NCBI GenBank assembly: GCA_016432525.1
Contig: CP066693.1
Span: 160,815 to 224,814 of the forward strand
From: Candidatus Woesebacteria bacterium
GTDB taxonomy: Bacteria > Patescibacteriota > Microgenomatia > UBA8517
DNA length: 64,000 bases
Direction of reading: 5' to 3'
The position numbers and the translations under genes are program-made. Within the stretch, counting starts at the first letter, position 1. Each line of letters begins with the position of its first letter. Positions 6,578 to 63,938 of the stretch are shown piece after piece. The notes under the pieces were generated by a model, which saw only the letters and a program-made list of their open reading frames with translations, was not told the origin of the DNA and ran no database searches.

Positions 6578-6594
6578 TGGTTTATAATTAATCT

Positions 6595-6915: not shown

Positions 6916-6917
6916 AT

Positions 6918-7253: not shown

Positions 7254-7266
7254 CAAAGTCACAAAT

Positions 7267-7997: not shown

Positions 7998-8004
7998 TAA
8001 ATAC

Positions 8005-8361: not shown

Positions 8362-8446
8362 AACCTATCTAATATATCTTTCAATATGCATATATTGTTC
8401 ATATTGATTTCTCTCTGCTTTTTACTTTAGACTTATATTTAAAGGT

Positions 8447-47631: not shown

Positions 47632-49173
47632 TTGCTTACTAAAATTGCATCAGCCGCCCATTTTGGTCTGGAGTCAGTCCCCATTACAGTAGAGGTTAAT
47701 GTTTTCAAAAAAGGTTTTCCCGGTTTTAATATAATCGGTCTTCCAAATAAGGCAGTTGACGAAGCAAAGGAAAGAGTAAAAACTGCACTAATTAACTCAG
47801 GCATTGATTTCCCAACCCTTAAAATAATTGTAAATCTAGCGCCAGCCGATATTCCCAAAGAGGGGAGCGCCTACGATTTACCAATTGCAATTGGAATTTT
47901 AAACTCTCTAGAAATAATTAAATTACCAAATGAAAAATCATACTTTTATGGAGAGCTCTCTCTAGATGGAACTCTTCGTCATACAAAAGGAGTTTTACTT
48001 TTAGCAATAGAAGCCCGCAAAAATAAAGTAAAAAATCTCTTTGTCCCAGAAGACTCTTCTCACGAAGGAGCAGTTGTGAAAGAAGTAAATATTTATCCAG
48101 TTAAATCAATAACTGCACTAATTTCGCACTTAAATGATGGCGCTAAGATTCCTAAATTAAAACCTAAAATCGGCAAAACAAACTCAAAAAGAAAATTTTT
48201 TGTTGAGTTCGATTTCTCAGAAATTATAGGCCAAGAGCAAGCAAAAAGAGCTCTAACTATTGCAGCCTCGGGTGGACACAACATTTTTATGCAGGGCCCT
48301 CCAGGCTCTGGAAAAACAATGCTAGCTCGAGCTGTCCCAGGAATTTTACCCGATTTATTGGATGAAGAAAGTCTAGAAGTAACCAAAATTTACTCAATTG
48401 CAGCTCTAATTTCTCCCGGCCAATCTTTAATAAGAACACGCCCTTTTAGAGTTGTTCATCATACAACTTCCAGAATAGGACTAATTGGAGGAGGAAGTAA
48501 TCCTCATCCTGGTGAAATTTCTCTTGCCCATCGTGGAGTATTGTTTCTGGATGAGTTTCCAGAATTTAGTCGCAGTTGCCTCGAAAGCCTTCGTCAACCC
48601 TTGGAGGACGGGGTGGTTTCAATCTCTCGCGCAGCAGGTTCAATAAAATTTCCAGCCGAATTTATGTTGATTGCAGCAGCCAATCCCTGTCCTTGTGGCT
48701 ATCTTGGTGATCCCAAACGAAATTGTAAATGTTCACCACGCTCAATTATGCGCTATCAATCAAAGCTTTCAGGTCCTTTAATGGACCGCATAGATCTTCA
48801 TATAAACGTCCCAACAGTTGATGTAGATAAGCTCATAAATACAGAAAAAATCAAAACTAATATTCAAAATAGTCAGTCAATTCGAAAAGAAGTAATAAGA
48901 GCAAGAAAAATTCAATCAGATCGTTTTAAAAAAGACAAAATATTTACAAATTCGGATATGAAAAATAAACACATCAAAAAATATTGCAAACTAAATCCTT
49001 CAGGAAGTTTAATTCTAAAACAAGCAGTTGCATCCTTTAATTTATCAGCCAGAACTTATTTTAGAATTATAAAAATCGCAAGAAGCATTGCTGATTTGGA
49101 TAATTCAAACTTCATTGAAGATAAGCACATAGCTGAAGCTCTTCAATACAGAGTCCGTACAAATATTAATTAA
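47632..49173 (+). CDS. comM: YifB/ComM family Mg-chelatase-like AAA+ ATPase
   Basis: N-terminal ChlI-like lon-protease-like domain (GLESVPITVEVNV...GFPGFNIIGLP), Walker A GPPGSGKTML, C-terminal Mg-chelatase domain; TTG start. Confidence 0.8.
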   Translation: MLTKIASAAHFGLESVPITVEVNVFKKGFPGFNIIGLPNKAVDEAKERVKTALINSGIDFPTLKIIVNLAPADIPKEGSAYDLPIAIGILNSLEIIKLPNEKSYFYGELSLDGTLRHTKGVLLLAIEARKNKVKNLFVPEDSSHEGAVVKEVNIYPVKSITALISHLNDGAKIPKLKPKIGKTNSKRKFFVEFDFSEIIGQEQAKRALTIAASGGHNIFMQGPPGSGKTMLARAVPGILPDLLDEESLEVTKIYSIAALISPGQSLIRTRPFRVVHHTTSRIGLIGGGSNPHPGEISLAHRGVLFLDEFPEFSRSCLESLRQPLEDGVVSISRAAGSIKFPAEFMLIAAANPCPCGYLGDPKRNCKCSPRSIMRYQSKLSGPLMDRIDLHINVPTVDVDKLINTEKIKTNIQNSQSIRKEVIRARKIQSDRFKKDKIFTNSDMKNKHIKKYCKLNPSGSLILKQAVASFNLSARTYFRIIKIARSIADLDNSNFIEDKHIAEALQYRVRTNIN

Positions 49174-49904
49174 TGGAAAATCCGATTAAGTATTAAAGTA
49201 AGTTCAAACAAAATTACTAAAGGCAAGGTGAGTAAGATGTCTGCAAGTACCGAATCTGGTGGCAATAGGACAGCAAAGATAAAAGAGCCGAGATAAATCC
49301 ATGGACGTTGCTTGCTTAGATGTTGATGCTTAACAATTCCGATACGCATCAAAAGTAAAAGAACTATTGGAAATTGAAAACCAATTCCCATCAAAGCAGA
49401 AGTCAAAACTACTGTTGTAAGTAAATTGCTAATGTCTAGTATATTGCCAATGCCCAATGAAATTGATCTACTAAGAAATATTTGAATTTGCCATTTCATG
49501 ATAAGAGCTCCAAACAAAAATCCGCCTAAAAAAAGAATCAGTGAAAAAGGCAAAAACCTGACAACCATTTTATACTCCTTTATCCTAAGAGCTGGCTTCA
49601 AAAAAGATAAAATTTGAATTACAAGGACTGGAAAGGACAGAATAAGTCCAGAAGCCACCCCACAAGAAATCGCTAGATTAATAAATTGAAAAGGTGAAGT
49701 AAAAACTATATTAATACCTTTTAGACTAAGAATGTCAATCAAAAATTTTATTATCTCTTCATAAAAGAAAAATCCACCCATGGTTGCTAACCCAAAAACC
49801 AAAAGTGTAAAAACGATTCTTTTTCTAACTTCGTTTAAAAAAGGGGAGTACTTATCAACTAAAGCTTTTAGCTCAGGAGAAGTAAGGGGTTTAATATTTT
49901 CCAC
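49170..49904 (-). CDS. tatC: Twin-arginine translocase subunit TatC
   Basis: 244 aa, 6 TM; N-terminus LTSPELKALVDKYSPFLNEVRKRIVFTLLVF typical TatC. Confidence 0.7.
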   Translation of the reverse strand: MENIKPLTSPELKALVDKYSPFLNEVRKRIVFTLLVFGLATMGGFFFYEEIIKFLIDILSLKGINIVFTSPFQFINLAISCGVASGLILSFPVLVIQILSFLKPALRIKEYKMVVRFLPFSLILFLGGFLFGALIMKWQIQIFLSRSISLGIGNILDISNLLTTVVLTSALMGIGFQFPIVLLLLMRIGIVKHQHLSKQRPWIYLGSFIFAVLLPPDSVLADILLTLPLVILFELTLILNRIFH

Positions 49905-49926: not shown

Positions 49927-50091
49927 TTACTCTTTTTTTTCTTTTTCATCGCTATCTTTTGAAGCTTTCTTAAACTCTCTGACAGCATCCCCAAGACCCT
50001 TGAAAAATTCTGGGATTCTCTTACCTCCAAACAAAAGAAGTACTATAACTGCAACAATTATTAATTCAGTCGGTCCTATAGATTGAAACAT
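49927..50091 (-). CDS. tatA: Twin-arginine translocase TatA/E-family protein (second copy, 54 aa)
   Basis: Not in ORF track (under 60 aa). Reverse-complement translation MFQSIGPTELIIVAVIVLLLFGGKRIPEFFKGLGDAVREFKKASKD... has the TatA TM-hinge (FGxK.P)-amphipathic helix pattern. Confidence 0.6.
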   Translation of the reverse strand: MFQSIGPTELIIVAVIVLLLFGGKRIPEFFKGLGDAVREFKKASKDSDEKEKKE

Positions 50092-50094
50092 AAC

Positions 50095-50307
50095 CTACTT
50101 TGAAGCCTCCTTTTCTTTTTTAGAAGATTTGTCACCATCATCTTCTATCGCTTCAGTAAAATTCTTTTTAATTTTTTTAATCTCTCTAAAAGTCTCGCCC
50201 GCTCCTTTACTCAAATTGATAACTACTTTACTGCCAAAAAATACTATCAAAATTAAAGCAATAATTACAAGCTCTGTCGGGCTTATATTTTTTATAAAAT
50301 CAAGCAT
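50095..50307 (-). CDS. tatA: Twin-arginine translocase TatA/E-family protein
   Basis: MLDFIKNISPTELVIIALILIVFFGSKVV...LSKGAGETFREIKK. Confidence 0.65.
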   Translation of the reverse strand: MLDFIKNISPTELVIIALILIVFFGSKVVINLSKGAGETFREIKKIKKNFTEAIEDDGDKSSKKEKEASK

Positions 50308-50362: not shown

Positions 50363-50563
50363 CTACACTTTACTCATGGCCGTTGTAAACCAATAAGACC
50401 CGTTAAAATATTCAAGACTATTGGTTTGGGAGTTAAAGCCAAACGTTCCTCGTCTTGCTTTTTTTGGCCTGCTGCGATTAGTCCATGAAACAAGTGTCGG
50501 AAGACTGATTATCACGGATAAACCTTGACCAAGATCCATCAAGAGGGGTAATTTTTCTGCCAT
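50363..50563 (-). CDS. Stand-alone copy of the conserved C-terminal module of the S-P-S-[I/V] repeat protein (66 aa); possibly a gene fragment/cassette
   Basis: SWTNRSRPKKARRGTFGFNSQTNSLEYFNGSYW aligns residue by residue with SWNIAGRPKNVKKGTFGFNFQTNHLEYWNGSAW at the C-terminus of CDS 50580..52169. Confidence 0.45.
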   Translation of the reverse strand: MAEKLPLLMDLGQGLSVIISLPTLVSWTNRSRPKKARRGTFGFNSQTNSLEYFNGSYWFTTAMSKV

Positions 50564-50579
50564 CTGAAAGTATTATATA

Positions 50580-52169
50580 TTAAATTTTCTTCATTGGAAG
50601 TTTTAGCCAGGCTGATCCATTCCAATATTCCAAATGGTTTGTTTGGAAATTAAATCCAAACGTTCCCTTCTTTACATTTTTCGGTCTGCCGGCAATATTC
50701 CACGATGGGATTACCTTCTGTTCAATAGGACCAAATAATTGTTGAGTAGCTGTAATTTTGCGGCTAATGATCTGAGGATTTCTCATAAATATTGGTTTTT
50801 CTTCAACCAATGGCAATGGTAATTCGGCTACAGAAGGACTAGCTGATGGGGATGGACTTATGCCGGCGGAAGGGGATGCGGAAGGGGATGCGGAAGGGGA
50901 AGGACTACTTACACCAACTGATGGTGACACAGATGGTGAAGCGCTTGCTCCGGCCATAGAAGGGCTGGCTGAAGGACTAATACTGGGTGATATAGAATTC
51001 GGAGGTGAAATACTTGGAGAGATTGAAGCCGATGGAGATACACTCGGGCTGGCTGAAGGACTAATACTGGCGCTGGGAGAAATAGAAGGCGATCTTGACG
51101 GCGAGATTGATGCTGACGGTGACACAGATGGTGAAACACTTGCAGAGATGCTAGAAGAAAGAGATGGGCTAACAGATGGAGATATAGATGCTGATGGAGA
51201 GATTGAAGCCGATGGAGATACACTCGGGCTAACAGATCGAGAAACACTTGGTGAAGCAGACGGTGAAATACTTGGAGAGATTGACGGGGATGTGCTCGAA
51301 ACGGCTGATGGTGAAACAGAAGGGCTAATTGAGGGACTTATTGACAGACTAATAGATGGAGAGATTGATGCTGACGGTGACACAGATGGTGAAATACTTG
51401 GAGATCTTGAAGGTGAAACGCTTGGACTTGGAGACATTGAGGGGGAAATCGATGGTGATACTGATGGAGAGGTGCTTGGACTAGGCGAAACAGAAGGCGA
51501 GATACTCGGGCTAGATGAAGGAGAAATTGATGGCGAAGGAGATACAGACGGAGACACACTTGAGCTTGGTGAAACTGAAGGTGATACTGAAGAGCTGATA
51601 GACGGTGAGACAGAGGGCGAGATAGATGAGCTAATGGAAGGAGATACAGATGGGGAAGGTGAGATCGATGGACTAACCGAAGAACTGATGGATGGTGAAA
51701 TACTTGGACTTGGTGAAACTGACGGACTAATTGACGGACTTATAGATGGAGATATTGAAGGAGATGGTGAAACAGACGGCGATGCACTTACCCCAACTGA
51801 AGGTGAAACTGATGGTGAAATCGAAGGAGAAATTGATGGCGAAACAGATGGAGAGACAGATGGGGACGCACTTACACCAACTGATGGCGAAACCGAAGGA
51901 CTTATAGATGGTGAGACACTCGGACTTGGTGAAACAGAAGGGGAGATCGATGGTGATCTTGAAGGAGATACGCTTGGGCTAATGGAAGGAGATATAGATG
52001 AGGAAGGTGAAATAGATGGACTTACTGATGGTGAAATAGAGGGTGAAACACTTGGACTAGGTGAAACAGATGGACTAATTGACGGACTTACAGATGGTGA
52101 AATACTTGGGCTTGGTGAAACAGACGGACTTATTGATGGTGAAACAGAAGGAGAGATCGAAGGTGACAC
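50580..52169 (-). CDS. S-P-S-[I/V] tetrapeptide-repeat protein, segment C (repeat tract + conserved C-terminal domain)
   Basis: About 110 tandem SPS[IV] units then ...ELPLPLVEEKPIFMRNPQIISRK...KGTFGFNFQTNHLEYWNGSAWLKLPMKKI. GTG start lies 17 nt after the stop of segment B in the +2 frame. Confidence 0.55.
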   Translation of the reverse strand: MSPSISPSVSPSISPSVSPSPSISPSVSPSISPSVSPSPSVSPSISPSVSPSISPSSSISPSISPSVSPSRSPSISPSVSPSPSVSPSISPSVSPSVGVSASPSVSPSVSPSISPSISPSVSPSVGVSASPSVSPSPSISPSISPSISPSVSPSPSISPSISSSVSPSISPSPSVSPSISSSISPSVSPSISSSVSPSVSPSSSVSPSVSPSPSISPSSSPSISPSVSPSPSTSPSVSPSISPSMSPSPSVSPSRSPSISPSVSPSASISPSISLSISPSISPSVSPSAVSSTSPSISPSISPSASPSVSRSVSPSVSPSASISPSASISPSVSPSLSSSISASVSPSVSPSASISPSRSPSISPSASISPSASPSVSPSASISPSISPPNSISPSISPSASPSMAGASASPSVSPSVGVSSPSPSASPSASPSAGISPSPSASPSVAELPLPLVEEKPIFMRNPQIISRKITATQQLFGPIEQKVIPSWNIAGRPKNVKKGTFGFNFQTNHLEYWNGSAWLKLPMKKI

Positions 52170-53700
52170 TGACGGTGATGCACTTACTCCAATTGAGGGG
52201 AAACCGAAGGACTGATTGATGGACTAATAGAGGGTGAGATAGATGGTGATGGTGAAACAGATGGCGAAATACTTGGTGATCTCGAAGGTGAGACACTCGG
52301 ACTTGGTGAAACCGAGGGTGAAACAGATGGGCTGACAGAAGGAGATATGGAAGGTGATGGTGATGCGGATGGCGATATCGATGGTGATCTTGAAGGAGAT
52401 ACGCTTGGGCTAATGGAAGGTGATATTGATGGACTTGGAGAAACAGATGGAGAAATAGAGGGGCTAATTGATGGTGAAATACTTGGGCTTGGAGAAACCG
52501 AAGGACTGATTGATGGACTAATAGAGGGTGAAGCGCTTGGTGAAATACTTGGACTTAGAGAAGGTGAAACAGATGGACTAATTGACGGACTTACAGATGG
52601 TGAAATACTTGGGCTTGGTGAAACAGACGGACTTATTGATGGTGAAACAGAAGGAGAGATCGAAGGTGACACTGACGGTGATGCACTTACTCCAATTGAG
52701 GGGATATAGATGCCGAGGGTGATACAGAAGGCGAGACGCTCGGACTGATGGATGGAGAAACAGAGGGTGAAGGAGATACAGAAGGAGATACGCTTGGCGA
52801 GATAGATGGAGACACACTTGGACTAACTGATGGTGAAACACTTGGACTAGGAGAAACAGATGGTGATATTGATGGACTAATGGAAGGAGATATAGATGAG
52901 GAAGGTGAAATAGATGGACTTACTGATGGTGAAATAGAGGGTGAAACACTTGGACTTGGAGAAACCGAAGGACTGATTGACGGACTTACAGATGGCGAAA
53001 TACTCGGACTAACTGAAGGAGAGACACTTGGTGAAACCGAAGGACTTATAGATGGTGAAATACTAGGACTTGGTGAAACAGATGGCGAAATACTTGGCGA
53101 GATAGATGGAGACACACTTGGACTAGGTGAAACAGATGGACTAATGCTGGGTGATATTGATGGAGATATAGATGCCGAGGGTGATACAGAAGGCGAGATA
53201 CTCGGACTGATTGATGGAGAAATACTAGATGATGGTGAAACAGATGGACTAATTGACGGACTTACAGATGGAGATACACTCGGACTTGGTGAAACAGATG
53301 AACTAATAGATGGTGAAATAGAAGGTGAAACTGACGGACTAATACTTGGACTGACAGATGGTGATACTGATGGTGAGGGGGAAACAGATGGACTAATAGA
53401 TGGACTTATTGACGGTGAAAGAGATGGTGAGGGGGAAACAGATGGGGAGATTGAAGGGCTAACTGAAGGAGAAATGGATGGTGAAGGAGATACAGAAGGA
53501 GATACGCTTGGCGAGATAGATGGAGACACACTTGAACTTGGTGAAACAGAAGGGGAGATCGACGGTGACACTGATGGTGAAACAGATGAACTAATAGATG
53601 GTGAAATAGAAGGTGAAACTGACGGACTAATACTTGGACTGACAGATGGTGATACTGATGGTGAGGGGGAAACAGATGGACTAATAGATGGTGAAAATGA
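50830..53700. repeat. ~2.9-kb degenerate 12-nt (4-codon) tandem repeat tract encoding (S-P-S-[I/V])n on the minus strand
   Basis: Plus-strand units of the form ga[tc]gg[tcag]ga[ag]a[ct][at]ga[at]gg...; every frame on both strands is open, giving the mirrored D/E/G-rich and H/L-rich ORFs in the track. Exact 142-nt repeats at 52060-52201 and 52563-52704. Confidence 0.9.
52184..52672 (-). CDS. S-P-S-[I/V] repeat protein, segment B (pure repeat, 162 aa)
   Basis: Begins GTG and ends SPQLE-stop inside an exact 142-nt repeat. Reading frame of A continues into B and C if one nucleotide is restored at each junction. Confidence 0.45.
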
Positions 53701-54375
53701 AGACCCTGCCTCATTCCAAGTAAGTGTTATTGCGCCAACAGCACCTGTTCCGCCTCTTTTGACGGTTGTTCCTGAATTACTTCCCGCGCCGCCTCCACCA
53801 CCGCCAGGATATACACCGTTAGAACCGTTAGCATTAGCTGCTCCACCACTTCCACCGCTTCCGCCGCCTCCTGCGCCGCTTCCGCCGTTGGGCGGTGCAC
53901 CATTGGTACCGCTGGCTCCATTCTGGGCATTTCCAGCTGCAGCTCCTCCACCTCCGCCTACGGTGGTTGCATTCGCAGCGCCATTTCCACCATTATTTCC
54001 AGCAGGAATTGAATTAACTCCGTTTCCTGCAGCACCTCCAGCACCACTTCTGTTTCCGGCGCCACCACCTGAAGCTTCAACCTCATTATTGTTATAACCA
54101 GACTGCCCACCTGGAGTTCCGTTAGTATTGTTGGTACTTGCCCCTGCACCTCCAACGCCGATTAGAATAGTCAAGACATCGTTTGGATTTGCAACGACAC
54201 TATTGATAGTATAAGCTCCACCTCCGCCTCCTCCAGCACCATGAGCGCCTGTAGTTCTACCGTAAGAACCACCTCCACCTCCGCCTCCCCAAACTTCAAC
54301 AGTAACATTACCACTTATATTGCTTGGAACTGTCCAGTTATTATTATTGTTGAAGGTGATTGTATTTTGGGCCAT
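52687..54375 (-). CDS. S-P-S-[I/V] repeat protein, segment A (Gly/Asn-rich N-terminal domain + repeat tract)
   Basis: Firm start (in-frame TAG two codons upstream): [39 protein letters not shown]...[12 protein letters not shown]. ~210-aa Gly/Asn/Ala-rich domain then ~85 SPS[IV] units. No signal peptide. Confidence 0.6.
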
Positions 54376-54450: not shown

Positions 54451-55704
54451 TTATCCTTTAATGACGTACCATATCCGCCCCGGCCCAATTGCCGGCTTTA
54501 GCAGACAATCAAAAAGGGCTTTCTTAACCGTCTCATGATCATAATCATGTCCGCAAAATAACTTCTTACACTTCGGAAGCCAGGCCTTTACATCCTTCAC
54601 GACCGAATCATAATCATGAGAAGCATCAATCCAGACCATATCAATAGAATTGTCCTCAAACTTTTCAGATGCGGTTATACTATCCAATCGAATAAGATCA
54701 ACATTGGAAAAATCTTTTGTATTTTTTATAAATTCTTTCTCAACATCCACGGCCGGTGAATCTCCAACTTTAGGTATAAGAAACCTCTCCGGAACAGTGG
54801 CGTATCCGTCGGATGGATTTGCTTGAAAATTATCGATTGCATATACCTTGCCCTTGCAAGCACTAGCCAGAGCGTGTGCGTCTCTCCCTTTCCAAGCGCC
54901 AATTTCAGCAACACAGTTCATATCTTTGGCCATGAGGTAGAGCCACGACAGTTCAGGTAAATCTGTCCATCCCTCAATCTTCGGGTCTTTATAATCCGTT
55001 ATTTCCCATGTGGCGAGAATATTTTTCATCAATTCCACTTTTTCCTTTATATTGATGGTATATTGGTGCCAGAAATAGTTTCCGCCGCCGCGTTCTTCTA
55101 TAATCTTATCCACTCTCTTAAACTTTAAACCAAAACGGGCGATATTTCGAGAAAGCATATAATCATCTATCAAATGCTCGCGAGTAATTACCGTATTCAA
55201 TTCATTCTGGATTGGAAATATATTCTTTAATGCCTCTTCGTAAGGTATATCTAAAGGATGCCAGAGATCCAGACACCAATCAGAAGCAATTGTCAGCCAA
55301 TTACAAGAACCAATATGCCGTCCATCCCGACGGAAATAATCATCATATCGCCAACGAATATTTGCCATGTCATTACCATTATGGCAAACCGTGTCTTTAG
55401 AAATAAACTCTGTTACATCAAACATATCCGGGTGAACTAAAGCATCGGAGTCAATATAAATATTCCAATCATTTTTCATTTGCCGGCCGAGGTCATAAAT
55501 TTGCATCTTCTCATATACCGGTGGAAATTTGGGAAACTTGCGCTCTTTGATAATATAAAAATCAGCCCCTATTTTATCTGCGTAGCGCTTGATCAAGGGA
55601 TAAGTAAATTCTGTTATTTCCGGAGCATACCCGTCAACATTGAGAGTAAAAATAGTTTTTTTTAATTTTCTTTGACCCATACTATCTGTATTATACAATT
55701 CCAT
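54451..55704 (-). CDS. Bifunctional-looking protein: N-terminal GT-A-like nucleotide-sugar transferase domain (DxD) + C-terminal class I SAM-dependent methyltransferase (Methyltransf_24/TylF-like)
   Basis: N-terminus ...NIYIDSDALVHPDMF (DxD). C-terminus CVAEIGAWKGRDAHALA...IDMVWIDASHDYDSVVKDV...LFCGHDYD, characteristic of macrocin-O-methyltransferase-like MTases. Confidence 0.5.
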   Translation of the reverse strand: MELYNTDSMGQRKLKKTIFTLNVDGYAPEITEFTYPLIKRYADKIGADFYIIKERKFPKFPPVYEKMQIYDLGRQMKNDWNIYIDSDALVHPDMFDVTEFISKDTVCHNGNDMANIRWRYDDYFRRDGRHIGSCNWLTIASDWCLDLWHPLDIPYEEALKNIFPIQNELNTVITREHLIDDYMLSRNIARFGLKFKRVDKIIEERGGGNYFWHQYTINIKEKVELMKNILATWEITDYKDPKIEGWTDLPELSWLYLMAKDMNCVAEIGAWKGRDAHALASACKGKVYAIDNFQANPSDGYATVPERFLIPKVGDSPAVDVEKEFIKNTKDFSNVDLIRLDSITASEKFEDNSIDMVWIDASHDYDSVVKDVKAWLPKCKKLFCGHDYDHETVKKALFDCLLKPAIGPGRIWYVIKG

Positions 55705-55709
55705 TTATA

Positions 55710-56816
55710 TTAAAGTAGACGACCTGCATTAATTCGAGAATCGTAAATGGTTTTTGTAATAAATCTGTCAGGCTGAGGCTCACTTTCTTCAGATTTGATA
55801 TCATTACTTGCCCCATTAAATTTAAAAGTATTTGCTTTCAACTTTGCCAGCTCCGCTTCCGTCCAACCCTTAACCGGCCAAAATTTTTCCAGAAGCCAGC
55901 TTAGAGGATGAACCTGTTTGGGCCAATTATTATTAAAAAAAAGTTCCCGGGCATAGGTCCTGGCTTTTTCTTGGTCCTTATTAGACATCGGGTAGGGGAA
56001 ACCAAAATCTCCCCCTTGGGTTCTAAACATATGAGCATACCACGTCTTATGATTGACGAAAACTTGTCCTCCAGAAAGCCAAGTTTTGACTGCCACTTCA
56101 ATTCCTTGGGAACCCCAACCTCCGAAATTCTCATCGCAGACATCTAATTGCCAGTATTTCTCTCGAGTCAGCATCCAAGCTGATCCCTGAAGAGACATTG
56201 TCTCGGTTAGTCCTTTTCCTTTTTTATCTTTTTCGTATTGTGGTCTATGCTTCCAGTCTTCAAAATATTGAAAGTGGGGAGTTGAATCAAAACAATAGGA
56301 AGTGCTCTGGGGATTGTGCTTTCCGGCCCAAATCAATTTTCTAATAAACTTTTTACTGTCACAAGGTTTACCAGTTTTTCTAAAATTAGTCTCACGACAT
56401 TTAGTTGGAGTTGGCCCTTGGTACCATTTCTTTCCACATTTTAGGCATTTCCAATCAAACGCCCAGAGATTTCTCATTATAGGGACCATTGTTACATTGT
56501 CTCCTGTAATTTTAAATGCCTCGAGCATTTTGCGGTCAAATCCTTTGTCAAAAGAACAATGAGCATCACACTTCATAACGTATTTTGCCCGGGAGAGCTT
56601 GCAAGCAAGATTAGTAGCTGCTCTTTGTCCAATTGACTCCGGAAGATAAACAACATTAACCCGGTCATTCTGCGTGATTGGCGGCTCTGCAAGCTTACCA
56701 TCCAAGACGACAATAATTTCTGTATCAGCTTCAATGTTTACCAAAGCATCGTCTACAGTGTTTTTGAGAAACATCTCATTGCGAGCAGGAATTAAGATAC
56801 TCAAATCATGGTCCAT
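55710..56816 (-). CDS. GT-A fold glycosyltransferase with DxH and WG..E motifs reminiscent of polypeptide GalNAc-transferase (GT27/GT7/GT2 clade)
   Basis: LSILIPARNE (GT2-type N-terminus), VVLDG, YVMKCDAHCSF (compare ppGalNAc-T LDAHCE) and FGGWGSQGIEVAVKTWLSGGQVFVNHKTWYAHMFR (compare WGGENLEISFRVWQCGG...GHVFR). Soluble, no TM. Confidence 0.5.
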   Translation of the reverse strand: MDHDLSILIPARNEMFLKNTVDDALVNIEADTEIIVVLDGKLAEPPITQNDRVNVVYLPESIGQRAATNLACKLSRAKYVMKCDAHCSFDKGFDRKMLEAFKITGDNVTMVPIMRNLWAFDWKCLKCGKKWYQGPTPTKCRETNFRKTGKPCDSKKFIRKLIWAGKHNPQSTSYCFDSTPHFQYFEDWKHRPQYEKDKKGKGLTETMSLQGSAWMLTREKYWQLDVCDENFGGWGSQGIEVAVKTWLSGGQVFVNHKTWYAHMFRTQGGDFGFPYPMSNKDQEKARTYARELFFNNNWPKQVHPLSWLLEKFWPVKGWTEAELAKLKANTFKFNGASNDIKSEESEPQPDRFITKTIYDSRINAGRLL

Positions 56817-56867: not shown

Positions 56868-57401
56868 CTATGCTTTTTGGAACTTGAAGTAATAGTGTTG
56901 ACGATCATATTTATATATCGGACCGTCTACTAACCTAAAACCTGCATTATCAACAGTGATTACAAGGTCATTTGGCGTCCATGTGTGGTAACGCTGACCA
57001 GGCTGTGTAAACCTTCCACCTGATGAAATGCTTACGTAAAAGTATTTTTTAATGACACGCCTTGCTTCTGACAATGCCTTTTTGAAGTTGCTAATATATT
57101 CCAAAGTGTCTGACATTAGAGCTGAATCAAATTGCCCTATTTTATAAGGAAGACGGGTGGCGTTTCCTAAATCGACCTTGACGCCCTTTTCAGCTGCAAG
57201 TTTGATAGCGTAAGGATCATTGTCAACTCCTTTTATGGTAAGAACATGGCTAATTAAGCCATCGCCAGCACCGATATCAATGGTATTTTCCTCGCGAACG
57301 TATCTACTTAAGAATTGGACATGCCTCACATATCGTTGCTTTGCTCCAGCATACCAATCCCAATGATACGCTCCAAGCTTTTTATAGGGAGTTGTTACCA
57401 T
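56868..57401 (-). CDS. Class I SAM-dependent methyltransferase
   Basis: Motif I IDIGAGDGLISHVL; post-I acidic residue; 177 aa. Confidence 0.6.
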   Translation of the reverse strand: MVTTPYKKLGAYHWDWYAGAKQRYVRHVQFLSRYVREENTIDIGAGDGLISHVLTIKGVDNDPYAIKLAAEKGVKVDLGNATRLPYKIGQFDSALMSDTLEYISNFKKALSEARRVIKKYFYVSISSGGRFTQPGQRYHTWTPNDLVITVDNAGFRLVDGPIYKYDRQHYYFKFQKA

Positions 57402-57447: not shown

Positions 57448-58026
57448 TTAATATTTTTTTCTAACAATAATTAATATGTCACGTTTTCTGTTGTCAGGAA
57501 ATTTAAAAACTTCACAGTTATACTCTGTTAATTCGTTCTTGATGCAATCCGGACGGTTGGAGTCTTCAATTACATAGATAACGTCTTTTTTAAGAAGGGG
57601 CATAAGAGTGCAAACTGCTTGTAATTGAAATCGTTCATTGTGAGGTCCATCGTCAATTACAAGATCTATATCTGAGCCTATTTCTTTTATCAGATTTTGC
57701 AAGTTGGGGATTCGTGACGTACTTGATAAGATTGTTTTTATTCTGTCAGTTTGGAAAATAGTGCTTGGGTGTCGGTCTACGCCATAAATTTGGGCATTTG
57801 GGAAAAAATCTCGCCACATCAAAAGACTTGCGCCTGTTTGATAGTGTTTTGGAACATATTGCATTGTATATTTGCTACCAATGCCTAATTCTAAGATTTT
57901 TTTAAATTTTTCTTTTTTGTCTTTTAGGAGTTGGTAGTATACAGGAGTGTAGTTATGTCCAAGTTGAGGGCACTTATCGGTTCCGTATTTATAAGCTAAT
58001 TCGCAAAGCGGTGTTTGATTTTTCAT
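57448..58026 (-). CDS. Class I SAM-dependent methyltransferase
   Basis: ILELGIGSKYT motif I, ...IYGVDRHP..., DLVIDDGPH. Confidence 0.55.
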   Translation of the reverse strand: MKNQTPLCELAYKYGTDKCPQLGHNYTPVYYQLLKDKKEKFKKILELGIGSKYTMQYVPKHYQTGASLLMWRDFFPNAQIYGVDRHPSTIFQTDRIKTILSSTSRIPNLQNLIKEIGSDIDLVIDDGPHNERFQLQAVCTLMPLLKKDVIYVIEDSNRPDCIKNELTEYNCEVFKFPDNRKRDILIIVRKKY

Positions 58027-58865
58027 ATGATTTTATATTTATAAAATAAGTCTCTTAATCTCTCATTAACTAAGACTTTGTTTAACTTATTTTTGCCAAA
58101 GACGCAAACACCAATATTATCATTGCCCAATTCCACCTCTCTTTTGTCAAAAGGATGGAAATGGATAACCTTAAGAGGCTTTTTAGCCTCTTCGTAACAA
58201 ACAGAAATATTTCTTTTCCTGGTCGCAAAATTGTAAGTAATATTTAATTTTTTAATAAACTCATTCATATTACTTCTATTTCTTCTAGTTAATGCTAAGA
58301 GAGCTACTTCTTCGTTAGATTGATATTGATAAACCTTGTCTTTTATCAATCTGAAAATAAATTCAGAATCTTTGGTAAAAAAGATACTTCCAGTACTCCA
58401 CCATCTGTCATGAGATTCGTTGATGGTAGTTTTTCCATAACCTGTTAAAGCAAACGGAAAATTCCCCAAATTAAGCTCTTCCTCGGTAATTTTCTCTAAT
58501 TGGAAGGCATCTAGATCATGAAACCACCAAAGATCATCTCCAATTAAGCCTTTGTCAAAAAGATAAAGTATTGCAAGGATTTTGGTTGCCCTCTTTTTTA
58601 TTTCGCAGAAAAGTTCATCGGGCACAACCATGGATTTGATTCCCATGTATTCATAATCAAAATTAGTTATAAATATAATATCTTTGGGTTTCCAACCCAA
58701 CTCTAAGCTATTTTCAATCTGAATTTTTGCCAAAATTTCACTTTCTTTATTCCACTCATCTTCAGCAAAACATTTTTGGGGATTAAGATAAATAAGTAAA
58801 TTTTTCATGACAACACCTCCTTCAAGTTCCAACCAGGTATTTTGTCTATTGTTGTTTCGATCCAA
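58023..58865 (-). CDS. Hypothetical protein, possible GT-like enzyme (HDLDAF DxD-like motif)
   Basis: Soluble 260-280 aa. Start likely MKNLLIYLNPQK (about 58806) to avoid overlap with upstream gene. Assignment weak. Confidence 0.35.
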   Translation of the reverse strand: MDRNNNRQNTWLELEGGVVMKNLLIYLNPQKCFAEDEWNKESEILAKIQIENSLELGWKPKDIIFITNFDYEYMGIKSMVVPDELFCEIKKRATKILAILYLFDKGLIGDDLWWFHDLDAFQLEKITEEELNLGNFPFALTGYGKTTINESHDRWWSTGSIFFTKDSEFIFRLIKDKVYQYQSNEEVALLALTRRNRSNMNEFIKKLNITYNFATRKRNISVCYEEAKKPLKVIHFHPFDKREVELGNDNIGVCVFGKNKLNKVLVNERLRDLFYKYKII

Positions 58866-59509
58866 CCAGTAGGTTTGTGAATAAACTGATTTAATCTTAC
58901 TTTTGATGAGGAGAATGTTCCAACATGACGTATGTCAATATTTGGATATTTAGAACTCCATTCTTCATTTTTCTCTTCAAGAAATGCTCCATTACGTCTT
59001 TTCTTGCGTCCCGGTTCATATCCCCATACTCGGGCTAAATATGGATCTTTCTCACGGAATTTCTCAAAGCCAAGTTCCTTCATTCTTTTCTGCCGTGCTT
59101 TGAAATGATTGAATAATAGAACTCTATTTGCGCAAAGCTGGGAAAGAGAAGTTAATCCGTCGTATTTAATTATTTTTTTGCTTGGATAACCCCATCTCCA
59201 GTTGCTCATATTATAGTAGTAAACATCTTCTTTTGAAGGTGTAAAGTCAAAATGTGATTTATGGTACAAAACATCATGCTCACAAAAAAATACACAATCT
59301 ACACTACTTGCTTCAAGAGCCGCAATAATTTGATTAACCATGGTAGGATATCCTGGTTTGCCTTCAATAACTATATTCTTACCAAAATTTATCGGCTTTA
59401 AAGAGACACTTGTTATTGGCAATCCTGATGCAAGTATGTATTTTTGGCAGATAGAAAAAAGAGGTTCTATTAATCTGTTATCAGTATAATAAATAATACC
59501 TTTGGTCAT
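58805..59509 (-). CDS. Hypothetical protein in glycan-modification cluster
   Basis: 234-aa soluble ORF, co-directional and overlapping with neighbours; no recognizable motif. Confidence 0.4.
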   Translation of the reverse strand: MTKGIIYYTDNRLIEPLFSICQKYILASGLPITSVSLKPINFGKNIVIEGKPGYPTMVNQIIAALEASSVDCVFFCEHDVLYHKSHFDFTPSKEDVYYYNMSNWRWGYPSKKIIKYDGLTSLSQLCANRVLLFNHFKARQKRMKELGFEKFREKDPYLARVWGYEPGRKKRRNGAFLEEKNEEWSSKYPNIDIRHVGTFSSSKVRLNQFIHKPTGWIETTIDKIPGWNLKEVLS

Positions 59510-60120
59510 GGTTTGAAGAACATGTAGCTTAAGATATCATCAACTCTCCTCCCAGTGATTGATTTTTCCCTACCTAAAATATACCAGTTGGTTATGTTTT
59601 TAGCTTTGACAAATGCTTCTATTATAAAAGTAACATCATTGGTGTGAGAGCCATTGGTTTTAGAACCAATCACTTTATGATAGTCGTGTCCGGCTATAAT
59701 TCCACCAGATTTAACCTTGTCATACCATTTCATTAGGTCCATCGCTACATAACCGAAAGTATGATTGGCATCTATATAAACAAAATCAAGACTGTTGTTT
59801 TGTATATCTAATAAAGCATCCATTGAAGTTTTGCGGATAATACTACAGTTGGAGTATTGTGCTATCCTTTTTATGGTAGTAAGATACATATCTTCCAATC
59901 TTCTTGGAGCTCGATAACCCTGATAACTTGCCCATGGATCAATTCCGTACATTGTGAGGCCGGCGTGACAATATAATACTAGATTTCTTCCTGTAAAAAC
60001 ACCAATTTCAGCACCAGTTTTAAATCCTAACTGCTTAAAAAATTCAGGTAATTCATTTCTGGAGGAATCTGGTATTTCAAAAGGTTTACCTTTATGTTTC
60101 AACGCATCAATTAGTTTCAT
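59506..60120 (-). CDS. Class I SAM-dependent methyltransferase (Methyltransf_24-like)
   Basis: GAEIGVFTGRNLV motif I; FVYIDANHTFGYVAMDLMKWYDKVKSGGIIAGHDY. Confidence 0.55.
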   Translation of the reverse strand: MKLIDALKHKGKPFEIPDSSRNELPEFFKQLGFKTGAEIGVFTGRNLVLYCHAGLTMYGIDPWASYQGYRAPRRLEDMYLTTIKRIAQYSNCSIIRKTSMDALLDIQNNSLDFVYIDANHTFGYVAMDLMKWYDKVKSGGIIAGHDYHKVIGSKTNGSHTNDVTFIIEAFVKAKNITNWYILGREKSITGRRVDDILSYMFFKP

Positions 60121-60151: not shown

Positions 60152-61717
60152 ATGATAATGAAAATAGTTGGGTTTCAATCAGGCCATGACGTAGCTTATT
60201 GCATTTTAGAAAATGGTATTCCAATTCTTCATGAAGAATTGGAAAGATTTAGTAGAAGGAAAATGGAAGTGGGGGATGGATTAAAATTTTTCTTTTCAAG
60301 ATTTAGTGAGAATACCAACGATATAAAATATTTCACCTTTGGAAATCTAAACGGCAGGACTGGTAAATGGCAGAGTCGTTGTGGTGAAAAAGAAAGCGAT
60401 GACAAAATGAAAAAAATTTTAAGAGAAAATCACGGCTCTTTTTATGAATTTCCACATCATTTATGCCACGCTGCTAACGCCTTTTTTACCAGCAGTTTTG
60501 ATAGATCTTTAATTATTACTCTAGACGGCGGAGGATTTGAAGCAGACGATTCAGTGACGTCGTTTACCATAAGTGAAGGGATTGGCAATAAAATCAAAAG
60601 AATAAAGGTATTTCCCATCTCAGAAATTGATTTTGGTGGCCTTTGGAATGATGCAACTAAAAATATATTTAGTTTATCAGTCGGCCCTCCGAAAGGCAGT
60701 CAAGAAGGTACTGTTATGGCAATGGTAGCTCTCGGCGAACCAAAATATCTTAATCTTTTTAATCCGTATAGGCGAAGTAAATTACACTCAATTGCTAATT
60801 TGTCGGAGCAGGAAAAATTTAATGTTGCTACATCTTTGCAAAAGTTTACAGAAGATACATTTTTAAATTATGTATCAAAATACATTAAAAAATCAGGTCA
60901 CGAAAATATTTGTTTTTCAGGAGGCGTGTCATTAAATAGTGTCATGTTAGGCAAACTTAAAAGTTGGTTCCCTCAAATCAAAAACGTTTTTTGTGACCCT
61001 GTTCCATATGACGCAGGTCTAGCTTTGGGTTCTGCTCGTTATCTCTGGCATCATGTCTTAGAATATCCACGAATTAAAGATATTAAAAACATGCCCCCAT
61101 ATTTAGGAAAAATATATTTAAAAAAAGATATAAAAAGTGCTTGTAAATCTTATATAAATAAAATTAAAGTGAAGAAAGTTGATGATGATAAGGTTGTAAA
61201 ATTAATTGACGATCAAAAAATAGTATCTGTTTTTGGTGGGGGATCAGAAAGTGGGAGGAGGGCGCTTGGAAATAGAAGCATTTTAGCTGATCCAAGAAAT
61301 CCTGAAATGAAGAAAATTATAAATGAAAAAGTAAAACACCGAGAGTGGTTTAGACCTTTTGCTCCATCGATTTTAGAAGAAAAAGTAACTGACTGGTTTG
61401 AGGATAATTACAAAAGTCCTTATATGTCTTTTGCAGTAAAGTTTAAAAAAGAAAAAAGAAATCAAGTACCTGCTGTCGTTCATTATGATGGTACTGGAAG
61501 ACTCCAGACTGTTAATGAAGTCTTAAGTCCTTGGTATTACAACTTTATAAAAAAATGGGAGTTGATATCAGGTGTGCCGATTTTATTAAATACTAGCTTC
61601 AACGATAGTGAACCAATTGTAGAGACCCCAGAAGATGCAATAAGGTGTTTTTTGGGAACTCAAATAGATTATTTATATTTTTTTGATTATGGCTTATTAG
61701 TTGAGAAATTAATTTAG
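60152..61717 (+). CDS. Carbamoyltransferase (NodU/CmcH family)
   Basis: N-terminus MKIVGFQSGHDVAYCILENG (Kae1-like carbamoyltransferase N-domain), conserved GGVSLNSV and C-terminal carbamoyltransferase domain (FRPFAPSILEE). Confidence 0.7.
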   Translation: MIMKIVGFQSGHDVAYCILENGIPILHEELERFSRRKMEVGDGLKFFFSRFSENTNDIKYFTFGNLNGRTGKWQSRCGEKESDDKMKKILRENHGSFYEFPHHLCHAANAFFTSSFDRSLIITLDGGGFEADDSVTSFTISEGIGNKIKRIKVFPISEIDFGGLWNDATKNIFSLSVGPPKGSQEGTVMAMVALGEPKYLNLFNPYRRSKLHSIANLSEQEKFNVATSLQKFTEDTFLNYVSKYIKKSGHENICFSGGVSLNSVMLGKLKSWFPQIKNVFCDPVPYDAGLALGSARYLWHHVLEYPRIKDIKNMPPYLGKIYLKKDIKSACKSYINKIKVKKVDDDKVVKLIDDQKIVSVFGGGSESGRRALGNRSILADPRNPEMKKIINEKVKHREWFRPFAPSILEEKVTDWFEDNYKSPYMSFAVKFKKEKRNQVPAVVHYDGTGRLQTVNEVLSPWYYNFIKKWELISGVPILLNTSFNDSEPIVETPEDAIRCFLGTQIDYLYFFDYGLLVEKLI

Positions 61718-62823
61718 AACTTAACTAGTTCTGGAAAAGTATCTGGATCTTTTGGATCATATATTTCATTAATCCAAAATATTGTTAATAGATCTTTCTT
61801 TCCAATATTTTTGATTGAATGGGTATGAAATGTTGGCATATCGATATACACAGGTCGTTTCCCAGAAACTTTGTATGTATAAACCTTTTTGGAAAATAAT
61901 CTTCTTATTTTTATTTCTGCCTTACCTTTAATTACACAAAAACGTTCAATTTTTCGGGTATGATAATGATTTCCTCTCACTATGTTTGGGTGAGTTGTAG
62001 AAAAAGAAATTTGACCGCGTGTTTTGGTTTTGACAACTTCAACAAAAGCTCCACGCTCATCTTTTTTCAGATCTAAATTTACTGGAAAATGATTAGGATA
62101 AAGATAAGAACGAAAAGTGTTAAATAACTGAAGTTCGAAATTATTTTTAAATTTGGGAAAAATATCAAAAAAATACACGTCCCTAAAATTTTTCAATAAA
62201 GAGTAAATATCAGTTAGTTGCATTTTTTTGCCATTTGGAATAATTGTTTTAGAAGATTTTTTCTTAAATAAGCTAGTAATTAAGCAACATATATCTTGAA
62301 TATAAATTAGTTCAACTTTTGCATCAGGATTTACAACTGACTTTTTATTTTTTGAAAGTTCGTAAGCTAAGCTAGCAATAGCGGAATTATAGTAGGGTTG
62401 TGCAAATTCACCAAAAATATGTGGCGCAACTATTGAGAAAGTGGCAACTCTATTTTTTGTACCCCAATCTAGGATCATTTTTTCAGAGTCTCTCTTTGAA
62501 CGTCCATAAGCTGTGTTTCTTGTATTGTGGGTCGAAGACAAAAAAATAATTTTCGGTCTTTTATTTATCTTATCAAGAGTAGTTAGTATTGTTTTTGTTA
62601 ACTTGGTATTAATTTCGTATATTTCTTTTTCTTCTCCACGGTTTAATCCAGCTAAATGGACTACGATATCACATCTTTTAAGTTTTTTTGCAAGTTTTTC
62701 AGAAGTAGAGAAATCAGATTTTTGTACGGAAATTGGTTTATATTTATCTCTTTGTCCATATAAAAAGAAACGCAAATGAGTCCCAACAAATCCTGAAGCG
62801 CCTGTTATTCCTACTCGTACCAT
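61714..62823 (-). CDS. Bifunctional NAD-dependent sugar epimerase/dehydratase (N-terminal Rossmann) + cupin sugar 3,4-ketoisomerase/3,5-epimerase-like (C-terminal)
   Basis: MVRVGITGASGFVGTHL Rossmann GxxGxxG; C-terminal GAFVEVVKT...RGNHYHTRKIERFCVIKGKAEI cupin motif. Confidence 0.6.
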   Translation of the reverse strand: MVRVGITGASGFVGTHLRFFLYGQRDKYKPISVQKSDFSTSEKLAKKLKRCDIVVHLAGLNRGEEKEIYEINTKLTKTILTTLDKINKRPKIIFLSSTHNTRNTAYGRSKRDSEKMILDWGTKNRVATFSIVAPHIFGEFAQPYYNSAIASLAYELSKNKKSVVNPDAKVELIYIQDICCLITSLFKKKSSKTIIPNGKKMQLTDIYSLLKNFRDVYFFDIFPKFKNNFELQLFNTFRSYLYPNHFPVNLDLKKDERGAFVEVVKTKTRGQISFSTTHPNIVRGNHYHTRKIERFCVIKGKAEIKIRRLFSKKVYTYKVSGKRPVYIDMPTFHTHSIKNIGKKDLLTIFWINEIYDPKDPDTFPELVKF

Positions 62824-63938
62824 ACAACTCTTTTGATGTAGTTTATATAACTAAGTATGATCCGCAAGACCTTCTGGGAAACATGAGGATGTGAGTATTC
62901 TTGAGATACTGTTGGTTTATATCCATCACTTTGTTGTTTTTTAGTTAAGTTTATTGATTGCAAAACTCTCTCTGGGTCAAGTCCTGACATAATAACGGCC
63001 GCCTCATCCATAGCTTCAGGTCTTTCGTGGGCTTCACGAAGGTTAATTGCTGGAAAACCAATAATAGAGGATTCTTCGCTAATTGTTCCAGAGTCTGAAA
63101 GCGTACAAAAAGCATTTATCTGAAGATTTAAGTAGTCAAAAAAGCCTAATGGTTTTAAAACTCGAACAAGTCTAGGTAGTTTTTTATTGATTGATTTGAT
63201 GCGTGCGAGCGTTCTTGGATGACAAGAAAAAATAATCGGCATTTTATATTCTTTTGTAAGTTTATCTAATGTGTCATATAGTTTACTAAAATTTATCGGT
63301 GAATCGACATTTTCTTCTCTGTGAACTGATAATACAAAATATTTTTCTTTTAGAATTTTTAATTTTTTAAGAATGTTTGATTTATCGATTTCTTTTTTAT
63401 GTTTGTTTAAAACCTCATACATAGGAGAACCCGTTTTTATAATTCGATCGGAACTTAACCCTTCACGTAATAAATTTTGGCGCGCAAGCTCAGAGTAAGG
63501 CATATTAATATCGCTTAAGTGATCTATAAGTCGGCGATTTATCTCCTCAGGCACTCTAAAATCAAAACATCTATTGCCGGCCTCCATATGGAAAATTGGA
63601 ATTTTTCTACGTTTTGCAGCATATGAAGACATGGAGCTGTTGGTGTCTCCCAAAACAAGAAATGCATCTGGCTTTTCTTTTTCTAATATTTTATCCATCC
63701 CAGTGATAATGTTACCTACTGTGATTGTTGCTGTTTTTCCTATAGAGTTTAAAAAATAGTCCGGCTTTCTTAAATCTAAATTGTCAAAAAAAATTTGGGA
63801 AAGTTCATAATCATAATTTTGACCTGTATGAACAAAAATGTGATCAACATGTTTATCTAATTCTTTTATTATTTCTGATAATCTAATAATCTCAGGTCGG
63901 GTTCCTACAACTGTTAATACTTTTAATTTCTTATTCAT
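62811..63938 (-). CDS. wecB: UDP-N-acetylglucosamine 2-epimerase (non-hydrolysing)
   Basis: MNKKLKVLTVVGTRPEIIRLSEII...HTGQNYDYELSQIFF...LVLGDTNS family signature. Confidence 0.8.
   Translation of the reverse strand: MNKKLKVLTVVGTRPEIIRLSEIIKELDKHVDHIFVHTGQNYDYELSQIFFDNLDLRKPDYFLNSIGKTATITVGNIITGMDKILEKEKPDAFLVLGDTNSSMSSYAAKRRKIPIFHMEAGNRCFDFRVPEEINRRLIDHLSDINMPYSELARQNLLREGLSSDRIIKTGSPMYEVLNKHKKEIDKSNILKKLKILKEKYFVLSVHREENVDSPINFSKLYDTLDKLTKEYKMPIIFSCHPRTLARIKSINKKLPRLVRVLKPLGFFDYLNLQINAFCTLSDSGTISEESSIIGFPAINLREAHERPEAMDEAAVIMSGLDPERVLQSINLTKKQQSDGYKPTVSQEYSHPHVSQKVLRIILSYINYIKRVVWYE

Follow-up and report, generated by a model that had tools for sequence, protein, structure and literature searches.

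The window analysed here, a 64,000-nucleotide stretch of the chromosome of a Candidatus Woesebacteria bacterium (GenBank CP066693.1, positions 160,815 to 224,814), carries on its minus strand, shortly upstream of the twin-arginine translocation (Tat) genes, a giant gene whose product consists largely of Ser/Pro tetrapeptide repeats. Our best reading, to which we assign a probability of roughly 0.6, is that this is a chromosomal gene for a long, modular, mucin-like and phage-fibre-like surface fibre of the Woesebacteria cell, and that the two breaks in its reading frame are most likely errors of assembly. The gene belongs to a conserved family of the Microgenomates, within the Candidate Phyla Radiation (CPR), that comprises ~78 non-redundant loci and is defined by a variable head, an (SPSx)n stalk, a C-terminal module of ~75 residues (hereafter the C-module), a 66-aa paralogue of this module and tatA/tatC.

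Coding strand and domain architecture

The minus-strand span from 54375 to 50580 falls into three parts: a Gly/Asn/Ala-rich head, an array of S-P-S-[I/V] units and a distinctive C-terminus [Table 1]. Over its ~945 residues the array contains 475 Ser, 228 Pro, 97 Val and 94 Ile, with 161 exact SPS[IV] units, 196 SPSx units and ~236 unit-lengths. An initial annotation, made from the sequence alone, had recognised the density of this array but overstated its size (~3.8 kb and more than 250 copies, where we find ~2.9 kb). It had also described one continuous giant open reading frame (ORF), where two -1 frame changes divide the assembled gene into ORFs of 562, 162 and 529 aa, and had placed inside the giant locus the segment 50363-50563, actually a separate 66-aa gene that it had overlooked.

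The array is translated from the minus strand and is selected at the protein level. Its third codon positions are near random (1.6-1.7 bits of entropy) and positions 1 and 2 are fixed except for a serine switch: at equivalent positions, serine is encoded by TCN in 74% and by AGY in 26% of cases, with coupled TCN<->AGY exchange. That the product should instead be an Asp/Glu/Gly-rich protein of the plus strand, or the tract non-coding repeat DNA, might be entertained given the plus-strand ORFs of 451, 120 and 449 aa that are open over the tract and whose frame has the same wobble positions as the minus-strand frame. However, TCN<->AGY exchanges, which are frequent and leave the protein unchanged in the minus-strand reading alone, would replace Asp/Glu by Leu and vice versa on the plus strand, so that only the minus-strand Ser-Pro frame is under protein-level constraint. 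The recognisable domains flanking the tract are likewise in frame with it on the minus strand alone, and relatives hold up to ~1,700 unbroken Ser/Pro codons fused to the same C-module. Codon-position entropy, serine codon switch and in-frame flanking domains thus agree with the strand originally assigned and leave the plus-strand and non-coding alternatives a negligible probability.

The ATG at 54375 is firm, a TAG standing in frame two codons upstream, and the first beta-strand of the predicted head fold begins at residue 3; together these preclude a Sec or Tat signal peptide, in line with the firm start and the lack of either signal claimed earlier. The Gly/Asn/Ala-rich N-terminal domain of the initial annotation (~225 aa) is a genuine member of Pfam family PF21722 (Gly_rich_2; E 3.6e-13, 50.5 bits against a gathering cut-off of 24.3, aa 10-220), a domain type found as the receptor-binding tip of phage tail fibres, and also matches PHROG 863, annotated by PHROGs as tail fiber assembly. 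When an AlphaFold (AF2) model of the head built from 22 homologues (predicted local distance difference test, pLDDT, 86; predicted template modelling score, pTM, 0.86) was compared with the PDB by Foldseek, it matched the tail-tip chain 9d93_Qa of mycobacteriophage Bxb1 (E 6e-7), the tail fibre gp24 of cyanophage Pam3 (7ypx_A; E 1e-6, template modelling score 0.68) and, more weakly, the TNF-like plus glycine-rich (TG) domains of ALK/LTK (E ~3e-3), whose fold is the same as that of the head. The same TNF-like and glycine-rich domain, with its polyglycine-II lattice, is found in the phage fibre tips of Pam3 gp24, Salmonella phage S16 gp38 and the Bxb1 tail tip; in Pam3 gp24 it is the distal tip responsible for host-receptor recognition (PMC9608196). 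PDB sequence searches with the head and with the C-module gave no significant match, the likeness being seen by fold comparison only.

At its other end, the giant gene carries ...KGTFGFNFQTNHLEYWNGSAWLKLPMKKI and finishes with ...LKLPMKKI, in agreement with the C-terminal consensus of the family (...GTxGFNxQTxxLEYWNGxxWLxLPMKKI); the core of the C-module reads IPSWNxAGRPKxxKxGTFGFNxQTNxLEYWNGxxW. This region of ~75 aa is 44-58% identical to the C-termini of at least 20 related giants, matches phrog_1325 (E 4e-6) and, by tblastn, hits 275 phage genome records in features annotated as tail fiber or minor tail protein, with E values down to 6e-7 and ~50% identity across 35-38 aa. The distinct C-terminal domain recognised at the outset therefore stands, as does the alternative then offered of a phage-tail-fibre-like protein, insofar as PF21722, phrog_1325, Foldseek and tblastn give both end domains phage fibre relatives. 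In one of the matching phage proteins, Streptomyces phage Yosif gp26, the C-module precedes HxH fibre repeats and the C-terminus looks like an S74-type chaperone domain. An exhaustive profile search with the C-module retrieved 1,100 cluster representatives, in many of which 3-17 copies stand in tandem, which identifies it as a widespread ~45-residue repeat module. Among its BFVD matches, cyanophage proteins of 300-350 aa termed 'glycine-rich domain-containing' come out on top; cyanophages attach the C-module to heads of glycine-rich, LamG or F5/8 type and also have module-only proteins of ~80 aa. AF2 models it as a four-stranded mini-domain (core pLDDT >90), for which Foldseek finds as best PDB match the N-terminal region of phage CBA120 tailspike 3 (TSP3; 0.8 A over 39 aa) and also collagen XV/XVIII trimerisation domains, none with a significant E value. 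The window gene and phage fibres thus have in common a W.T..RP..G..GFN....E.WNG..W repeat and a glycine-rich tip.

The 66-aa gene that follows encodes a stand-alone, type B paralogue of the C-module (phrog_1325, E 4e-7; DUF7360, E 0.016) with 591 relatives in the protein collection, and in nearly every related locus comes immediately behind the giant gene. The database 'type A' small proteins P0024, P0025, P0026 and P0029 look like C-terminal stubs of unannotated or fragmented giants, as does HY044_01170, a 68-aa ORF (50580-50786, start MRNPQ...) that is all NCBI annotates at the 3' end of the array. Exact-product look-ups of ORF1, ORF3 and the 68-aa stub returned no record; by sequence, the 68-aa and 66-aa products match HY044_01170 and HY044_01165 at 100% identity. 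The family is systematically under-annotated, gene callers and assemblers breaking the giants, as illustrated by the 68-aa stub here and by artefact-like breaks in two public assemblies.

Related giants beside tatA and tatC

Scanning species-representative genomes and Joint Genome Institute (JGI) metagenomes for the C-module identified 18 and 80 related loci, respectively, 78 of them non-redundant; those with finer names belong to Woese-, Levy-, Davies- and Roizmanbacteria and to Microgenomatus. An in-frame Ser/Pro array lies directly upstream of the C-module in almost every locus. Complete giants are single ORFs of 987-2,248 aa whose heads are mutually unrelated, some of them with two or three globular domains parted by repeat tracts; their (SPSx)n stalks reach ~1,700 residues, and no signal peptide was seen in any related giant. 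A phmmer search with the window head found no match in the first 18 loci, the heads of which are therefore unrelated to it, and among the 78 non-redundant loci L043 alone has a head of the window type. L043, a metagenome locus, encodes an intact 2,105-aa protein that joins a head 45% identical to that of the window to ~1,500 SPS[I/V] residues and ends in the same C-terminus, so that the head-repeat-tail architecture is kept, as one ORF with a homologous head, in at least this relative. Across relatives, heads are swapped freely, and the stalk, C-module, small paralogue and tat genes are retained.

The order giant, ~66-aa paralogue, tatA, tatC is found in 16 of the 18 genome loci; over the non-redundant set, TatA is present in 64 of 78 and TatC in 55 of 78 loci, and where more than 1.8 kb of downstream sequence is available (n=50) these figures become 45/50 and 39/50, both counted within 2.5 kb. 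The position of the window locus between a glycan-modification cluster and tatA-tatA-tatC, with all three tat genes on the strand of the giant, is as initially described. The family is widespread in the Microgenomates, with hundreds of small-paralogue clusters, and searches of the literature on DUF7360, on O-glycosylation and serine-rich proteins in CPR bacteria, on Tat in Patescibacteria and on CPR tail fibres or adhesins found no description of it.

In several genomes two giants with unlike heads stand in tandem (L008, 1-3380 and 5890-10207; L010, 3926-10201 and 10356-14648; L016, 1-1536 and 3388-10101), the small paralogue and tatAC following the last giant only. Nine loci (L001, L003, L005, L007, L009, L011, L014, L016 and L018) come from TPA_asm records of metagenome-assembled genomes (MAGs) titled 'uncultured Gammaproteobacteria', 'Pseudomonadales' or 'Oligoflexia', yet have a Microgenomates-type locus with the same synteny and TatC identities of 54-71%; these titles are probably taxonomic mislabels. 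Upstream of the giant, some relatives encode paralogous proteins of ~370 aa with no Pfam match (L015, 913-2025 and 2113-3270; L004, 55-3386), exemplified by MADAHKNFAYS...PFNATIWP, which we take to be reminiscent of phage minor tail proteins, and by MYVTYEFTPSG...

Frame breaks and the phage alternative

As assembled, the window gene departs from the family trait of one uninterrupted ORF from head to C-module by its two -1 breaks. Both read ...TCCCCTCAATTGGAGTAAGTGCATCACCG..., the old frame running on to ...SPQLE-stop, and each is situated at the 5' edge of one copy of an exact 143-146-nt repeat (52562-52704 and 52059-52201), about one short read in length. In-frame paralogous units read TCGCCATCAGTTGG, the break motif having counterparts in frame near 51878 and 51794, whereas the broken units read TCCCC-TCAATTGG and have one base fewer; the defect hence equals 3n+1 missing bases. 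The only other broken array is that of Woesebacteria GW2011_GWA1_44_23 (L008, from the public GenBank assembly and recovered again as L066 from the same 85,822-bp contig); its frame likewise shifts twice by -1, at sites bordering a 99-nt exact repeat. L068, an independent assembly of the same organism that is 99.8-100% identical to L008, has an intact 1,674-aa ORF and contains 64 and 646 extra repeat bases exactly at the L008 breaks (L008 7323/7324 and 8591-8593; L068 6614-6677 and ~7948-8591). Junction DNA of the window breaks had no match in metagenome contigs, and no second assembly of the window organism was found.

Given that the other arrays are in frame and that the L008 breaks are gone in L068, the window breaks are probably repeat-collapse or mis-join artefacts of assembly, in which case the real gene would span no fewer than ~1,250 codons in a single ORF. 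Alternatively, the breaks may be real and the gene a pseudogene or an on/off variable gene, in which a Pro codon lost one base (CCN to CC) and intragenic recombination spread this deletion to a second unit. The broken units are exactly one base short of the in-frame TCGCCATCAGTTGG units and identical to each other over 143-146 bases, as would be expected from gene conversion, and repeat arrays are prone to slippage. We nevertheless consider this explanation unlikely, as no other non-redundant array changes frame apart from that of L008, whose breaks are demonstrably artefacts of assembly, the downstream segments and the C-module are free of further decay, and both breaks show the signature seen in L008, namely a position at the edge of an exact repeat of about short-read length. 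It is still more improbable that the breaks are programmed -1 ribosomal frameshift sites yielding nested products (head plus short stalk, intermediate and full length). Both breaks are -1 and identical in sequence, with a zero-frame stop at once after them, and re-pairing of tRNA-Pro from CCU to CCC would be possible; yet no X_XXY_YYZ slippery heptamer is present at either window site or at the L008 sites, the equivalent breaks of L008 vanish in L068, and no relative has kept such a site.

Independent translation of the two downstream ORFs was also considered and is unlikely: GGAG precedes the GTG starts of ORF2 and ORF3 at a spacing of 17 nt, which is too long, and a pure-repeat 162-aa protein such as ORF2 is without parallel in the 78 loci. 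The first repeat segment further contains a 117-nt in-frame duplicate (53287-53403 and 53575-53691, 100% identical) and the array an 80-nt exact repeat at offset 898; these could be other sites where the short-read assembly of the array is wrong.

The phage relatives of both terminal domains raise the question of whether the giant is a cellular gene at all or a phage or prophage structural gene, encoding the tail fibre of a Woesebacteria virus. The closest characterised relatives of the head and of the C-module are in phage tail fibres, the protein, like virion proteins, has no signal peptide, and L015 and L004 carry additional phage-like fibre proteins upstream of the giant. The window is, however, a bacterial chromosome of ~35% G+C with dnaA, leuS, groEL, comM and tatC and a monoderm-type type IV secretion system (T4SS) cluster, and the 10 kb around the giant, both in the window and in the long loci of relatives, are free of capsid, terminase, portal and tape-measure genes. 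Unlike prophages, moreover, the gene holds a fixed chromosomal position by tatA/tatC across several Microgenomates lineages. The protein also differs from phage fibres in its build. Its polarity is reversed, with the head N-terminal and the conserved module C-terminal, and cyanophage proteins that consist of the same two modules have them in the opposite order and without a stalk. In place of a folded shaft there is a Ser/Pro stalk of ~950 residues, and stalks of this kind, 1,000-1,700 residues long in relatives, are not a known tail-fibre shaft. That the giant is a phage or prophage structural gene seems to us very unlikely, and we favour a cellular surface fibre.

Glycan cluster, export and neighbouring genes

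The cluster upstream of the giant holds methyltransferase, carbamoyltransferase and 6-deoxy-hexosamine pathway genes together with a GT2 family glycosyltransferase (GT). GT2, as we call this enzyme, opens directly with its GT-A fold and, as read from the sequence, has no N-terminal membrane anchor, and would thus be a soluble, cytoplasmic enzyme. Its PDB relatives are exclusively polypeptide GalNAc-transferases (ppGalNAc-Ts 9, 1, 7 and 4; E 1e-4 to 1e-3, aa 188-300); the alignment crosses the Gal/GalNAc-T motif, and CDAH comes to lie opposite DSH only in a non-significant segment. GT2 homologues of 59-69% identity are found upstream of the giant in L001, L011, L017 and L010, and 10 loci of genome or metagenome origin have one overall, nine upstream of the giant and one downstream. 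The likeness of GT2 to ppGalNAc-Ts is the best available support for a putative cytoplasmic O-glycosylation of the Ser/Pro stalk. The O-glycosylated Ser/Pro tract of the initial annotation accordingly gains indirect backing from a soluble GT2 with no PDB relatives other than ppGalNAc-Ts, the modification itself and the non-classical export then proposed remaining inferences.

The 234-aa protein encoded in this cluster (58805-59509) has homologues in 8 loci, sometimes fused with the GT2 homologue into one protein, and in L010 (62-2746) the homologue of the GT2/234-aa pair contains an intein (Intein_splicing and Hint domains). Searches of Pfam, NCBIfam and the PDB with the conserved 234-aa and 280-aa upstream proteins and with several upstream genes of relatives returned nothing. 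The N-terminal part of the fusion encoded directly upstream of the giant may be GT-A-like, to judge from IDSD as a possible DxD motif.

Several known glycosylated systems invite comparison. The serine-rich repeat proteins (SRRPs) of Gram-positive bacteria, such as GspB and Fap1, also combine a very long Ser-rich stalk with a binding domain, and their genes lie beside those of dedicated soluble GTs and of an export machine, the accessory Sec system; SRRPs undergo intracellular glycosylation before their export (PMC7948813, PMC6973325). In contrast to SRRPs, the window protein has no long signal peptide of the KxYKxGKxW type, LPXTG anchor or transmembrane tail, its repeat unit is SPS[I/V] where SRRPs have S[AVTE] dipeptides, and its neighbours include a Tat translocase and a ppGalNAc-T-like GT; no SecA2/SecY2/Asp or GtfA/GtfB genes were found among the annotated neighbours in the window. 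With neither an accessory Sec locus nor LPXTG nor a long signal peptide, the serine-rich-repeat adhesin suggested earlier does not hold in the family sense. Eukaryotic mucin-type O-glycoproteins and their GT27 enzymes resemble the locus in the dense Ser/Pro tandem repeats and in an adjacent GT with ppGalNAc-T relatives, and differ from it in that the similarity of GT2 is weak (E 1e-4), GT2 has no lectin domain or membrane anchor and the stalk serines are flanked by Ile/Val. Also comparable in general description, with no sequence relationship looked for or found, is the Bacillus exosporium filament BclA, which has a TNF/C1q-like head, a repeat stalk of variable length and no signal peptide, and whose stalk is glycosylated with methylated deoxy-sugars from a neighbouring operon; BclA differs in its collagen GXX stalk, its C-terminal head and its assembly inside the mother cell. 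We rate the gene as a variant of glycosylated repeat-stalk surface fibres, unusual as a mosaic of phage parts and with a conserved link to Tat.

How a large, probably glycosylated fibre without a signal peptide, encoded mostly beside tatAC, would leave the cell is a puzzle. Because tatAC is so regularly linked to the giant, Tat is the foremost candidate for its export, a proposal based on synteny alone. No RR motif occurs in the N-termini of the window protein and of 10 related giants, the small proteins, like the giants, are devoid of a twin-arginine motif, and when ~950 kb of related loci were scanned for it, the only hits were spurious ORFs and TatC itself. L004 encodes, at 14091-14930 (-), a 280-aa protein starting with MPEQGRGLSRKDFLKALGLGSIATGLGL, a Tat-type signal with RK for RR; Microgenomates-type genomes such as L004 probably have ordinary Tat substrates.

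In the surface-fibre reading that we favour, the Ser/Pro stalk would be an extended, mucin-like spacer, O-glycosylated in the cytoplasm by the neighbouring GT and modified by the methyl- and carbamoyltransferases; the C-module and the small 66-aa paralogue may oligomerise the fibre or anchor it at the cell; the variable N-terminal head would be the distal end that binds a partner surface, which for an episymbiotic CPR cell is its host; and export would be independent of a signal peptide, with Tat as the candidate route. To our knowledge, all cultivated CPR bacteria/Patescibacteria are episymbionts. The layout of the family, with a variable binding head, a long stalk, a conserved base and phage receptor-binding parts, fits a host-range determinant. 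In the little-understood recognition and attachment of host cells by CPR bacteria, type IV pili are so far the only characterised factor (PMC12206443). A Tat-exported glycosylated fibre would, if true, be a Tat counterpart of the accessory Sec/SRRP system and a candidate host-range determinant in episymbionts. The more specific scenario, in which CPR cells have turned phage fibre parts, namely a swappable receptor-binding head and an attachment or oligomerisation module with a small adaptor paralogue, into host-attachment fibres whose giant mucin-like stalk is glycosylated in the cytoplasm by a ppGalNAc-T-like enzyme and which are exported folded by Tat, possibly hitch-hiking on the 66-aa paralogue, is speculative and in our estimate doubtful.

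A number of observations weigh against this surface-fibre reading. The protein has no signal peptide, twin-arginine motif, membrane anchor or sortase signal, so that its localisation is entirely inferred. The linkage to tat could be a conserved gene order without functional meaning, and the Tat-like signal SRKDFLK on another protein of L004 indicates that Tat is not dedicated to the giant. The PDB match of GT2 is of modest strength (E 1e-4) and largely confined to a single motif region, and its homologues lie upstream of the giant in only nine other loci, roughly a third of those with a visible upstream region. The Foldseek E values of the C-module against the PDB (0.6-0.8) are non-significant for a domain of ~40 residues, a role in trimerisation or anchoring being a structural analogy. 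Lastly, the gene is broken as assembled, with no second assembly of the organism to compare.

Table 1. Features of the giant gene and its surroundings, in window coordinates.
Feature	Position	Strand	Details
tatC	49170-49904	-	PF00902, E 1e-41; tightly spaced after the 66-aa gene and the two tatA genes
tatA (second)	49927-50091	-	tightly spaced
tatA (first)	50095-50307	-	tightly spaced after the 66-aa gene
66-aa gene, stand-alone C-module paralogue	50363-50563	-	HY044_01165; type B, N-terminal PLLxDxGQGLS...
Conserved C-terminal region	50580-50804	-	74 aa plus stop; PIFMRN... then IPSWNIAGRPKNVKKGTFGFNFQTNHLEYWNGSAWLKLPMKKI
Third segment	50580-52196	-	repeats and C-terminal domain; ORF3 50580-52169, 529 aa, GTG start
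(S-P-S-[I/V])n array	about 50826/50830-53697	-	~945 residues across three successive frames; ~2.9 kb
Middle repeat segment	52184-52699	-	open from SIGVSAS, ends ...VSPQLE-stop; ORF2 52184-52672, 162 aa, GTG start
Frame break 2 (-1)	52197-52200	-	same sequence as break 1, 503 nt downstream of it
ORF1 as assembled	52687-54375	-	562 aa; head and first ~335 repeat residues, ends ...SISPQLE-stop
Frame break 1 (-1)	52700-52703	-	C4 run in ATATCCCCTCAATTGGAGTAAG
N-terminal head, TG domain	53698-54375	-	aa 1-226 of ORF1
Fusion directly upstream of giant	54451-55704	-	Methyltransf_24, E 7e-13; Glyco_transf_21, E 0.075, not significant
Predicted soluble GT-A glycosyltransferase (GT2)	55710-56816	-	PF00535, E 8e-13; weak Glyco_transf_7C, E 0.06; CDAH (DxH-type) and Gal/GalNAc-T-like motif
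Methyltransferase	56868-57401	-	glycan cluster
Methyltransferase	57448-58026	-	glycan cluster
Protein of unknown function	58023-58865	-	glycan cluster
Protein of unknown function	58805-59509	-	234 aa; conserved together with GT2
Methyltransferase	59506-60120	-	glycan cluster
NodU-like carbamoyltransferase	60152-61717	+	only cluster gene opposite to the strand of the giant
WbcJ/FnlB-like reductase	61714-62823	-	glycan cluster
WecB-type UDP-GlcNAc 2-epimerase	62811-63938	-	glycan cluster

RNA searches of the window found neither a tRNA nor an Rfam feature, and a promoter and terminator scan was indistinguishable from shuffled sequence. Elsewhere in the window, a VirB4/TraG-type ATPase of 1171 aa (19886-23401, +) is interrupted by an intein with a LAGLIDADG homing endonuclease; inteins thus occur in two unrelated genes, this one and the GT2/234-aa homologue of L010. 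A T4SS-pilin-domain protein (4914-5864) and an M23 peptidase (23402-24796) accompany the ATPase, the three forming a Patescibacteria-type T4SS cluster (compare PMC12102498). Small ORFs follow the T4SS pilin gene in a run (5861-8794), and after them comes a 1197-aa protein with a GH5 cellulase domain (8686-12279, +).

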